IMG/VR virus record: IMGVR_UViG_3300044701_003269
Span: 32,001 to 96,000 of that record
DNA length: 64,000 nt
DNA from: a virus
Strand: one strand, 5' to 3'
Part shown: positions 1,201-33,761 of the stretch, in pieces
Numbering within the stretch: the first letter of the stretch is position 1
Layout: the number at the start of each line of letters is the position of its first letter
Position numbers and translations under genes: made by a program
Notes under the pieces: generated by a model
What the model saw: the letters and a program-made list of their open reading frames with translations, nothing else
What the model was told of the DNA's origin: nothing
The model's database searches: none

Positions 1201-1242
1201 CATCAACAGGTTAAGGAATGTAACAGTTCCTTAATCTTTGTA

Positions 1243-1350
1243 ACTCCCACTAACCGAGACCTATGGGGAGTATAAACACGTCTCTCATATCCTAGACTTA
1301 GGGTGTCTAGGAAATAAGTATCTCCACCATTTCCCTGATGGATCTACTTA
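1243..1350 (+). ncRNA. structured psbA 5' leader, likely PhotoRC-II-type cis-regulatory RNA
   Basis: GAGAC/GTCTC pairing; hairpins CCTAGAC-ttagggt-GTCTAGG and CCAT-ttccctg-ATGG with complementary loops (AGGG/CCCT); directly upstream of phage psbA. Confidence 0.65.
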
Positions 1351-8563: not shown

Positions 8564-8570
8564 GACCTTA

Positions 8571-8666
8571 CGTTCATCGGAGAAATCCGACGCAAGTAGG
8601 ACGGCGGAACGGTACGTTCATTCGCTATTCGCAAATAGCGAACGCAAACCGCCCGAAGGAACGGGG
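8571..8666 (+). ncRNA. double glutamine-riboswitch-like RNA (glnA / Downstream-peptide class)
   Basis: Two units of CGTTCA-[hairpin]-CGCAA...GGAACG; hairpins TCGGA-GAAA-TCCGA and TTCGCTATT-CGCA-AATAGCGAA; AGTA/GAA E-loop; GGACGG/CCGCCC pairing. Confidence 0.75.
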
Positions 8667-8697
8667 CCTAAAAATCTCATTCTGGAGGAAAATCCTA

Positions 8698-31497: not shown

Positions 31498-31926
31498 ATG
31501 AATAAACTTATGGATGATTTTAGTTGGTTAGTGGGAATTTTTGAAGGAGAAGGATGGTTCGGACTTAAAAAAAGAACATCTAAAATTCAAAACAAAACTT
31601 ATATCTACTATTATCCTCATATGTCTATTACTATGACGGATGAAGACATCATTAAACGTTTGAGTTCTATTCTAAAACACGAACACTATAGAACTTTCAC
31701 TCCTTCCGGAAAAAACGTAAAGGGTGAAAACTATAAAACAGCACATCGTTTATCAATCTGTGGACCTAAAGCAATGTATATTGCTGAAAAAATGGAACCT
31801 TTCTTATCTGAAAGAAGAAAGGAACAAATTAAATATGCTCGTGAAAATCAATCACGAAAAACAACATATAAAGAAGGATATACTCCGGTAGTTAAAAAAC
31901 AAACAAATTATGGTTTAATGTTTTAA
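31498..31926 (+). CDS. free-standing single-motif LAGLIDADG homing endonuclease
   Basis: WLVGIFEGEGWF helix, I.MTDEDII, PFL..RRKEQI; ATAAATA late motif upstream. Confidence 0.8.
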   Translation: MNKLMDDFSWLVGIFEGEGWFGLKKRTSKIQNKTYIYYYPHMSITMTDEDIIKRLSSILKHEHYRTFTPSGKNVKGENYKTAHRLSICGPKAMYIAEKMEPFLSERRKEQIKYARENQSRKTTYKEGYTPVVKKQTNYGLMF

Positions 31927-31928
31927 AA

Positions 31929-32108
31929 ATGAGACCAGAAACAAGAGAATCGATGGAAATGCTGTTCGCAGCAAAATGGAATGTACCAACGGCAGCAAAG
32001 AACTGTAATCTTACCAACAAAGAAATGAAGATTACATTCAATGAATACTGCCGTTTACATCCTCCAACTTATGTTGTAGAATCAGGTAGTCAACTCAGTT
32101 TCTTCTGA
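31929..32108 (+). CDS. hypothetical protein (59 aa, MRPETRESMEMLFAAKWN...)
   Basis: Translated by hand. Confidence 0.65.
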   Translation: MRPETRESMEMLFAAKWNVPTAAKNCNLTNKEMKITFNEYCRLHPPTYVVESGSQLSFF

Positions 32109-32116
32109 GTTTTTAT

Positions 32117-32398
32117 GCGAGTATGGTGGAATCGGTAGACACACCAGACTTATGAAAATTGAGCCTCATTTGAGAAATCTTATGAGTGTAATTCCTCAAA
32201 TTCGGTGAAACCTGTAAAATGGCAATACCGAGCCAAGCATCGTAAGATGAAGGTGTAGAGACTAGACGGGGAACACCTAAACCGAAAGGTATGGTGAAGG
32301 TATAGTCCAGACCACAAACCGAAAGGGTAGTGAAAACTATAGTGGTACGAAAATCTGTTGGGCGTATGCCCGTGGGAGTTCAAGTCTCCCTACTCGCA
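32117..32398 (+). tRNA. trnL: tRNA-Leu(UAA), intron-containing (exons 32117-32151 and 32350-32398)
   Basis: Acceptor GCGAGTA/TACTCGC; D-arm; spliced anticodon arm CCAGA-CTT^AAAA-TCTGT; long variable arm GGGC-gtat-GCCC; T-arm GGGAG-TTCAAGT-CTCCC. Confidence 0.92.
32152..32349 (+). mobile_element. group I intron (198 nt, trnL(UAA)-like)
   Basis: Follows U, ends in G; ATTGAGCC IGS; P AAATTCGGTGAA, Q AATACCGAGCC, R GTAGAGACTA, S AAGGTATAGTCC; P7 GACTA/TAGTC. Confidence 0.9.
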
Positions 32399-32443
32399 CT
32401 GAGGTTTATCCTCTAAATACTCAAAAGTAATAGGAATATTACT

Positions 32444-32713
32444 ATGAAGTACAGAATTGATGCCGCTTATGTCTGGTACAATCGCGGAAGACAAATCGTT
32501 TTAATGTACTTTATAAATTCTATTCCTTTTACTTTTGACGAACTCCCTGACGAATCTTTATTTGACTTGGAGTTAATTGAATTAGCAGACAAAGAAAGAC
32601 GTTTTGAACCTGAAGACTTATATCAATCTTCTTATTACTTAATTTTAGAAGAATGCCACCCTTTGCTTTATGAGTTGGATTTAGAAAATCCAGAGTGTAT
32701 GCCTGCTGATTAA
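32444..32713 (+). CDS. hypothetical cyanophage protein
   Basis: 89 aa acidic ORF after a CTAAATA late motif. Confidence 0.75.
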   Translation: MKYRIDAAYVWYNRGRQIVLMYFINSIPFTFDELPDESLFDLELIELADKERRFEPEDLYQSSYYLILEECHPLLYELDLENPECMPAD

Positions 32714-33140: not shown

Positions 33141-33761
33141 ATGAAATCAGATTTTTATATAGATAGGGTAGGTAAAGAAGAAATAAAAGAACTTCTTTAT
33201 ACCTATCATTATCTTAAAGACGAATCTAAAGATTTCAAATCGCATTTCAACTATGGGCTTTTCAGATCCTCAGTTTCTGATATTCTTAGGGTTGGTGGGT
33301 GCTTGGGCACTTGTATCTTTACTGGGTTACCAGTCCCCGAAATAGCAGTAGGTGCGTTTGGTTTAGAAAGAAACCAACAAGAAGGTATATACGAACTCTC
33401 AAGACTTTGTATACATCCCCTTATTCAAAAAGAAGAATATAACATCACATCTTGGTTCGTTAGTCGTTGCATAAGGAGATTTAAAAAAGATGCCCGCGTT
33501 CGTGCTATTCTTAGTTACGCTGACAATAATCAGCACTCTGGAATTATATACAGAGCTTGTAATTTTCAATACTATGGTTTGACTGATAAGAAATCGGACT
33601 TCTGGATAAAGCAATCTGATGGTTCCTTCATAAAACATTCAAGAGGTCCAATTAAAGGATTAGAAGGTGAATGGAGAGATCGTAGTCGTAAACATAGATA
33701 CCTGATGATATTTGATAAGGAACTGAAGAAAAGGTTGACGTGGGAAGAGAAATCGTGGTAA
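33141..33761 (+). CDS. Mom-like (GNAT-fold) DNA modification protein
   Basis: YHY, ELSRL, LSYAD, G.IYRACNFQYYG, KHRY motifs. Confidence 0.65.
   Translation: MKSDFYIDRVGKEEIKELLYTYHYLKDESKDFKSHFNYGLFRSSVSDILRVGGCLGTCIFTGLPVPEIAVGAFGLERNQQEGIYELSRLCIHPLIQKEEYNITSWFVSRCIRRFKKDARVRAILSYADNNQHSGIIYRACNFQYYGLTDKKSDFWIKQSDGSFIKHSRGPIKGLEGEWRDRSRKHRYLMIFDKELKKRLTWEEKSW

Follow-up and report, generated by a model that had tools for sequence, protein, structure and literature searches.

Can a tRNA gene of a phage be split by a self-splicing intron, and if so, is the intron still at work and where does it come from? This question is raised by a tRNA-Leu(UAA) gene in a window of 64,000 nt, by which we mean the whole stretch of viral DNA analysed here (positions 32,001 to 96,000 of IMG/VR record IMGVR_UViG_3300044701_003269). 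According to a 2014 review, the phage introns found to date were all located in protein-coding genes, despite the many tRNA genes that phages carry (PMC3984707). The answer that we reach, with high confidence, is that this tRNA-Leu(UAA) gene is interrupted within its anticodon, at U34/A35, by a compact group I ribozyme without an ORF, which belongs to a virus-borne lineage.

The window comes from a linear virus record of 174,186 bases (estimated completeness about 83%) of an uncultured virus. The virus behaves as a T4-like cyanomyovirus: in nucleotide comparison the window matched cyanophage records only, a glutamine riboswitch and a PhotoRC-II motif are present in it (Table 1), and the locus is syntenic with that of Synechococcus phage S-CAM4 (Kyanoviridae). 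In S-CAM4 an intron-less tRNA-Leu is accompanied by a homologue of the conserved small gene downstream of the tRNA (41% identity, annotated as “T4-like GC61”), a tRNA-Thr(UGU) and a tail protein, in this order, while a tail-fibre gene of 1,819 aa (phrog_529) lies shortly downstream of the locus in the window. The promoter candidate upstream of the tRNA (Table 1) is only weakly indicated, since promoter-like sites were no more frequent in the region than in shuffled sequences.

To routine annotation the gene is invisible. ARAGORN with default settings called no tRNA gene at 32117-32398. In intron mode (-i) it found a split tRNA at 32117-32399, in which the intron is forced into the canonical 37/38 position and the gene is wrongly labelled Tyr(ata). 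When the intron position was left free, the gene was called as tRNA-Leu(taa) with a 198-nt intron, in agreement with the split gene that an earlier note on this DNA had proposed. The extent given in that note, 32117-32398, turned out to be exact by direct reading (a 35-nt half, a 198-nt insert and a 49-nt half).

The junction of the two halves (CUU/a...g/AAAA) is set by the intron-less alleles of S-CAM4 and S-TIM5. Splicing in silico gave an 84-nt product, a class II tRNA, which ARAGORN called as tRNA-Leu(UAA) and which aligned gap-free across the junction with the intron-less tRNA-Leu of both phages, the anticodon stem-loop being identical in all three. In general, the exons are 91-94% identical to intron-less cyanophage tRNA-Leu genes, and in the BLAST comparison of the locus with S-CAM4 both exons meet at one point. 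Removal of the insert thus restores the anticodon loop CU-UAA-AA, as the earlier note had stated, and the related phages do hold intron-less alleles, in S-CAM4 at the syntenic site. The anticodon stem is closed at its top by a C.U mismatch (32144 with 32358), which is conserved in the clade of the window's intron; because S-CAM4 and S-TIM5 have it too in their intron-less genes, we ascribe it to this phage tRNA-Leu rather than to the intron.

The insert can be assigned to the group I introns, by class and site to the classical “Leu.3Ug” type (IC3). Rfam model RF00028 (Intron_gpI) matched positions 32142-32331 with 62.4 bits (E 2e-13; gathering cut-off 50 bits) over the full model (1-253), which was the single match of this model in the whole virus record. 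The core from P3 to P7 aligns to the model, and the covariance-model result agrees with the earlier reading as a trnL(UAA)-type intron. We built a structure model of the cloverleaf and P1-P9 by hand (Table 1) and checked it against alignment A1, which comprises 44 distinct homologues from viruses. It turned out that 95.3% of the model cells pair, vs 31-41% when the partners were slid by 1-3 columns, and that 47 of the 78 pairs show two-sided changes. The covariation score is 0.482, vs 0.05-0.10 in the controls, and none of 500 shuffles reached the observed values. The helices are paired in 82-100% of cells, except the single loop-closing pair of P6a (helix 12; 51%).

Compensatory changes are present in P2, P3, P5, P6a, P8 and P9. 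For instance, all four pairs of P9b have them, with 100% pairing. P4 and P5 (helices 8-9) are paired in 99.7% and 98.9% of cells, and P7 in 100%, with five of its six pairs invariant and one compensatory. Five GNRA-type loops and all core helices are conserved, while the U.G pair at the 5' splice site (CUU pairing with GAG), the terminal G, both of which the earlier note had pointed out, and the J6/7 and J8/7 strings are invariant in all 44 sequences. The split cloverleaf covaries too, in the acceptor, D, anticodon, variable and T arms. Besides, the minimum free energy fold has a z-score of -3.73, is equalled by none of 200 shuffles and recovers most of the helices. Covariation and conservation of both parts argue that the ribozyme and the tRNA are both under selection, and from the pairing across 44 homologues together with the invariant U.G and terminal G we infer that the intron is very likely a working ribozyme. 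The stem of P8 (CCUAAA...UAUGG) resembles what we take to be an 11-nt tetraloop receptor, by analogy with the Azoarcus intron. On the plus strand of 32152-32349 no ORF was found, so the window's intron has no endonuclease gene inside.

Table 1. Features of the split tRNA-Leu(UAA), of its surroundings in the window and of related viral loci. Plain positions are those of the window; L numbers denote loci of our survey.
Feature	Position	Strand	Remarks
PhotoRC-II RNA motif	1231-1325		78 bits
Glutamine riboswitch	8569-8667		37.2 bits
Free-standing LAGLIDADG-type homing endonuclease gene	31498..31926	+	142 aa; some 190 nt 5' of the tRNA
Sigma-70-like promoter candidate	32054..32082	+	TTTACA-17-TAGAAT; 10/12 matches; about 35 nt upstream of the tRNA
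5' exon of tRNA-Leu(UAA)	32117..32151	+	Acceptor 5' strand, D arm, anticodon-stem 5' strand, C-U-U34; ends GACUU
ORF-less group I intron	32152..32349	+	198 nt; IC3-like, site type “Leu.3Ug”; starts with A, ends with G
P1	32149..32163	+	Exon CUU and intron A1 (32149-32152) with UGAG (32160-32163, internal guide)
5' splice site	U32151.G32161	+	Wobble in P1; C-G, U-A, U.G invariant in 44/44
P2 hairpin	32165..32186	+	GAAA tetraloop 32174-32177; two-sided changes in 6/7 pairs
P3 5' strand	32189..32197	+	Partner 32265-32275; compensatory changes in four pairs
P4	32201-32207 with 32226-32232	+	Classical P and Q elements; encloses P5
P5	32211-32222	+	Minimal, 2 bp; inside P4
P6/P6a	32233..32253	+	GUAA tetraloop; covariation helices 10-12
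P7 5' strand (R element)	32258..32264	+	Proposed guanosine-binding helix; partner 32303-32308, P3-P7 pseudoknot
P3 3' strand	32265..32275	+	From the covariation alignment
P8 hairpin	32276..32294	+	GAAA loop; covariation helices 14-15
P7 3' strand (S element)	32303..32308	+	Covariation helix 13
P9 three-way domain	32312..32345	+	Outer stem, P9a (GNRA loop), P9b (GAAA loop); helices 16-19
Terminal (omega) G, 3' splice site	32349	+	Invariant in 44 sequences
3' exon	32350..32398	+	Starts AAAAUC; A35 A36 and rest of anticodon arm, then long variable arm, T arm, acceptor 3' strand, discriminator A
Conserved 89-aa gene	32444..32713	+	phrog_4134; marker of synteny on the downstream side of the tRNA
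Mom-family DNA modification gene	33141-33761		Pfam PF25680, E 2.8e-21
Intron in short-variable-arm tRNA bodies	L052:2742-3013, L101:2788-3060, L119:11077-11347, L079:1303-1577
HNH genes near split tRNAs	L056:3690-4166 (-), L030:3113-3574, L058:519-992, L063:11721-12185, L079:1623-2090, L011:6022-6510, L027:8160-8636
HNH ORF inside an intron	L261:596-1165 (LR756511)		189 aa; in the P6 loop

To figure out what the gene may mean for the phage, we compared its tRNA complement with its codon usage. The virus record contains 11 uninterrupted tRNAs besides the split tRNA-Leu, and no second tRNA decoding UUA/UUG. Across 32 long ORFs taken from the window, Leu is most often encoded by TTA (32.3%), and TTG accounts for another 10.6%, so that the two make up 43% of the Leu codons. 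Since the split gene is the only UUA/UUG decoder, the supply of this tRNA would depend on splicing; the idea that tRNA maturation here depends on self-splicing, also put forward in the earlier note, fits every test run. These data bear on the possibility that the locus is a decaying relic, namely a pseudogene in which a dead intron has inactivated the tRNA-Leu gene. That standard tRNA finders miss the gene and that the phage is uncultured would be in line with it, but the compensatory changes point to purifying selection on ribozyme and cloverleaf alike, the splice-site nucleotides do not vary, and the phage would lose its only UUR decoder, which makes a relic very improbable.

The splicing of a functional intron would proceed as follows. 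The precursor would be transcribed as a single RNA, in which the intron would fold into P1-P9 around the P3-P7 pseudoknot. An external guanosine would attack directly 3' of the U in the U.G wobble of P1, and the freed 3' OH of U34 would then attack after the terminal G, joining the exons to the 84-nt tRNA-Leu(UAA). By analogy, the exons probably assist by forming the anticodon stem; for the Anabaena intron such help has reportedly been shown. The counterpoint to this scheme is the shortness of P5 (2 bp) and P1 (4 bp), owing to which a protein helper or the folded exons may be needed for efficient splicing.

In its stronger form, this counterpoint says that the intron is no longer efficient alone and relies in vivo on a host or phage protein, either a chaperone or a maturase. 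Apart from the strongly reduced peripheral structure, it is in favour of such dependence that protein cofactors are required by many group I introns in nature (PMC3984707), whereas the conserved core helices and GNRA-type loops argue for an intact ribozyme, and no maturase-like gene consistently accompanies the intron among the viral loci listed. A case for comparison is the tRNA intron of Azoarcus, which presumably shares with the window's copy a compact size (about 200 nt), the J6/7-P7-P3 core string and two contacts of GAAA-loop/receptor type, and presumably differs in following a CAU anticodon (“Ile2.5Ug”) and in having just one P9 hairpin together with a long P5. This equally compact intron (205 nt) splices robustly unaided (PMC13168695). 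We therefore regard protein dependence as improbable and prefer a self-splicing ribozyme, probably assisted by its exons.

To see how far the intron is distributed, we searched a 20-nt degenerate core pattern over viral and genome collections, which gave at least 120 matches in each. Among the matches listed, 84 of 122 viral ones are located in split tRNAs, most of which (60 of 84) are tRNA-Leu(UAA), the others being Arg(UCU), Met/Ile2(CAU), Lys(UUU) and singletons. On the bacterial side, 100 of the 121 matches listed are in split tRNAs (61 in tRNA-Leu(UAA)) across Proteobacteria, Acidobacteria, Cyanobacteria and others. This wide bacterial spread agrees with the map of Williams (2020), who located 5,292 such introns and named the classical type Leu.3Ug, with phages unmentioned (bioRxiv 10.1101/2020.01.27.920355).

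Among the viral loci, Arg(UCU) genes are split in L055, L043, L064 and L068, CAU genes in L041, L113, L114 and L103, and Lys(UUU) genes in L042, L122 and L091. The intron of L041 has a 3' end which we take to be that of an Azoarcus-type Ile2(CAU) intron. L050 and L032 also hold split tRNAs of group I type, for which the ARAGORN labels “Pyl” and “Arg” are doubtful and the 3' splice sites are unplaced. These two may be suppressor tRNAs. L010 was also considered as a suppressor and rejected, as comparison with L122 identified it as a mis-parsed tRNA-Lys(UUU).

By BLAST, the whole pre-tRNA occurs in nine viral contigs at 97-98.6% identity to the window; about the best 50 matches are all viral, and the top bacterial match has 74% identity. 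Three large phage genomes carry a tRNA-Leu(UAA) split at the same site, namely LR756501 (735 kb), LR756511 (595 kb) and Agrobacterium phage Atu_ph07, a cultured jumbo phage with a 278-nt intron (MF403008, about 112,890-113,250; L260, about 1194-1555). In MF403008 no tRNA is annotated at this copy and a “hypothetical protein” covers part of it. The introns of Atu_ph07 (L260) and LR756501 (L001, 1494-1784) are clear homologues which align well to the window's 62-bit copy, and yet Rfam cmscan gave no match on either of them even at E <= 1e-3. This shows that the public RF00028 model fits the virus-borne lineage poorly and under-detects it, and a missing Rfam match is therefore not evidence of absence for this lineage.

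For the origin of the intron, its likeness to the trnL(UAA) intron of cyanobacteria had been emphasized from the beginning. Both have the same site, gene and anticodon, the U.G pair, the terminal G, the core and no ORF, and the U^AA layout, which the earlier note had claimed to be shared, was recovered in 8 cyanobacterial loci. There are differences as well: the sampled cyanobacterial introns have 220-312 nt vs 198 nt here, and the window's copy sits in a phage genome and a phage-type tRNA body, with its minimal P5 and a forked P9 of two GNRA hairpins. We inferred an IQ-TREE phylogeny with care from 160 distinct tRNA-embedded introns; a quick tree, in which the window's clade lay in a polytomy, was set aside because the AU run revealed a tree better by 84 log-likelihood units. 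In the careful tree the window's intron falls into an all-viral clade of 19 members (support 93/93), whose sister is the cyanobacterial trnL clade (UFBoot 65, SH-aLRT 91), and a joint viral and cyanobacterial clade was not rejected by the AU test (p 0.94). Kinship with the cyanobacterial trnL introns is thus suggested by the sister position, with weak support and at low identity of the window's copy to the cyanobacterial ones, and the two lineages may share a deep ancestry.

A recent capture of the whole intron-bearing gene from the trnL(UAA) of a cyanobacterial host would be a more direct explanation of the same site and class, of the weak sister position and of the P1-P2 opening (UUGAGCCU...GAGAAAUC), which resembles the cyanobacterial copies. 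Against it, the window's intron is at most 67.5% identical to cyanobacterial copies and up to 99% to viral ones, its clade is not nested within the cyanobacterial clade, and its exons are of the phage type described above and visibly unlike those of cyanobacterial tRNA-Leu. To score intron-less alleles on the host side, 401 cyanobacterial genomes were scanned for a 17-nt anticodon-arm pattern (2 mismatches allowed), but the outcome was too noisy for this purpose. Instead, RF00028 was searched in one cyanobacterial family, presumably Prochlorococcus/Synechococcus to judge from its genomes of 1.3-2.2 Mb with 31% GC, in which 2 of 151 genomes had a match, neither of them in a tRNA that ARAGORN could call. 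Low identity, a viral clade of its own, phage-type exons and rare matches in the cyanobacterial family searched together indicate that the intron is not a recent capture from a host gene, a scenario which we consider very improbable.

We rather suggest a virus-borne lineage which is gained and lost among the tRNA-Leu genes of cyanophages and which appears to have entered unrelated tRNA bodies. Four viral loci (L119, L052, L079 and L101) have an intron with 91-96% identity to that of the window, while their exons are only 61-64% identical and form a tRNA body with a short variable arm, with the same GACUU/AAAAUC arm at the same syntenic site. Further intron-bearing tRNAs with short variable arm and UAA anticodon were observed in L013, L035, L093, L098 and L105; this combination is not the normal architecture of a bacterial tRNA-Leu.

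Homing endonuclease genes are found near several copies. In the window, the LAGLIDADG-type gene upstream of the tRNA is located in an insertion of about 460 nt, which is specific to this phage and separates two small genes that are conserved. It matches phrog_5046 (E 2.9e-23) and contains the motif LVGIFEGEGWF, with Pfam LAGLIDADG_1 below threshold, and it is 37% identical to a “putative LAGLIDADG homing endonuclease” of Synechococcus phage ACG-2014f. Among the 120 viral loci listed, no homologue of it was found beside other intron copies. It might assist the intron in moving. The nearest relative of the window's copy (L056, intron 99% identical) has instead an insertion of about 515 nt with a 158-aa HNH gene 34 nt downstream of the tRNA. 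Such HNH genes occur at 34-48 nt from the split tRNA in L056, L030, L058, L063 and L079, and the family (about 155 aa) lies within 0-48 nt of split tRNAs when L011 and L027 are included. In the 595-kb phage LR756511 a 700-nt intron, which occupies the identical site of tRNA-Leu, contains an HNH homologue (49% identity) in its P6. Most intron copies among the 120 viral loci listed have no endonuclease neighbour.

Hence four stages are seen: no intron, intron alone, intron with a neighbouring endonuclease and intron with an internal one. The spread of the intron is probably aided by adjacent free-standing homing endonucleases. Viral and bacterial introns interleave in the tree. As a separate observation, three viral/bacterial pairs in it (L071/L204, L103/L241 and L022/L144) involve Skermanella, Accumulibacter and Pyrinomonadaceae, and a prophage origin of the viral contigs, mis-binning or genuine transfer could explain them. 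The suggestion that phages act as a vehicle for this intron lineage is made plausible by the intron shared among unrelated bodies, the interleaved tree and the flanking endonucleases.

Comparable arrangements are known from phages. The psbA intron of cyanophage S-PM2 pairs with the free-standing endonuclease F-CphI (PMC6083498), and mobE of T4 is a parallel case (PMC2790892). Like the psbA intron, the window's ORF-less intron has a free-standing endonuclease gene nearby, which makes the two a candidate pair for collaborative homing. With the T4 td, nrdB and nrdD and the S-PM2 psbA introns the window's copy shares the phage-borne, self-splicing nature, presumed in its own case, and some of them are likewise ORF-less with a free-standing endonuclease next door; they differ in their protein-coding hosts, whereas the window's intron is in a tRNA and of the bacterial tRNA-type ribozyme class.

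For tRNA genes, Devoto et al. (2019) described “enigmatic” introns in the tRNAs of Lak megaphages, presented as the first phage tRNA introns, which they left unclassified and for which group I is never mentioned (PMC6784885). These also lie within phage tRNA genes and are missed by bacterial-mode tRNA finders; unlike them, the window's intron can be recognized from its sequence as a bona fide group I intron. The word “intron” is absent from the huge-phage paper (PMC7162821) and from the Atu_ph07 paper (PMC6102473), and a full-text literature search, with most subscription journals outside its range, yielded no account of a group I intron in a tRNA gene of a phage. The ribozyme type itself is well known; its setting here is a phage tRNA, and the copy is one of a common, unannotated virus-borne lineage.

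In conclusion, the finding contradicts the textbook-level rule that phage group I introns reside only in protein genes (PMC3984707), and the exception is common among the viral matches listed; even the cultured Atu_ph07 carries a copy that was overlooked in its own genome paper. Its interest lies in the phage setting, the abundance, the invisibility to routine annotation and the surrounding mobility system. Because bacterial-mode tRNAscan-SE and ARAGORN are blind to such genes, phage tRNA repertoires and the codon-usage arguments built on them are systematically incomplete, and in the window the overlooked gene is the only decoder of the most-used Leu codon of the phage. Besides, it has long been debated whether the trnL(UAA) intron was inherited from ancient times or transferred laterally; to this debate, a virus-borne lineage which uses this site in several tRNA bodies, and whose endonuclease partner is absent, adjacent or internal, offers a concrete and testable vector. 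We put forward, as a speculation with only a modest chance of being right, that the Leu.3Ug introns of phages are actively mobile invaders of any tRNA gene with the GACUU/AAAAUC anticodon arm, driven by adjacent or internal homing endonucleases, and that the intron would protect the endonuclease-carrying phage from its own enzyme. If so, phages, and not vertical descent alone, would have seeded the patchy trnL(UAA) introns, including the cyanobacterial and plastid lineage.
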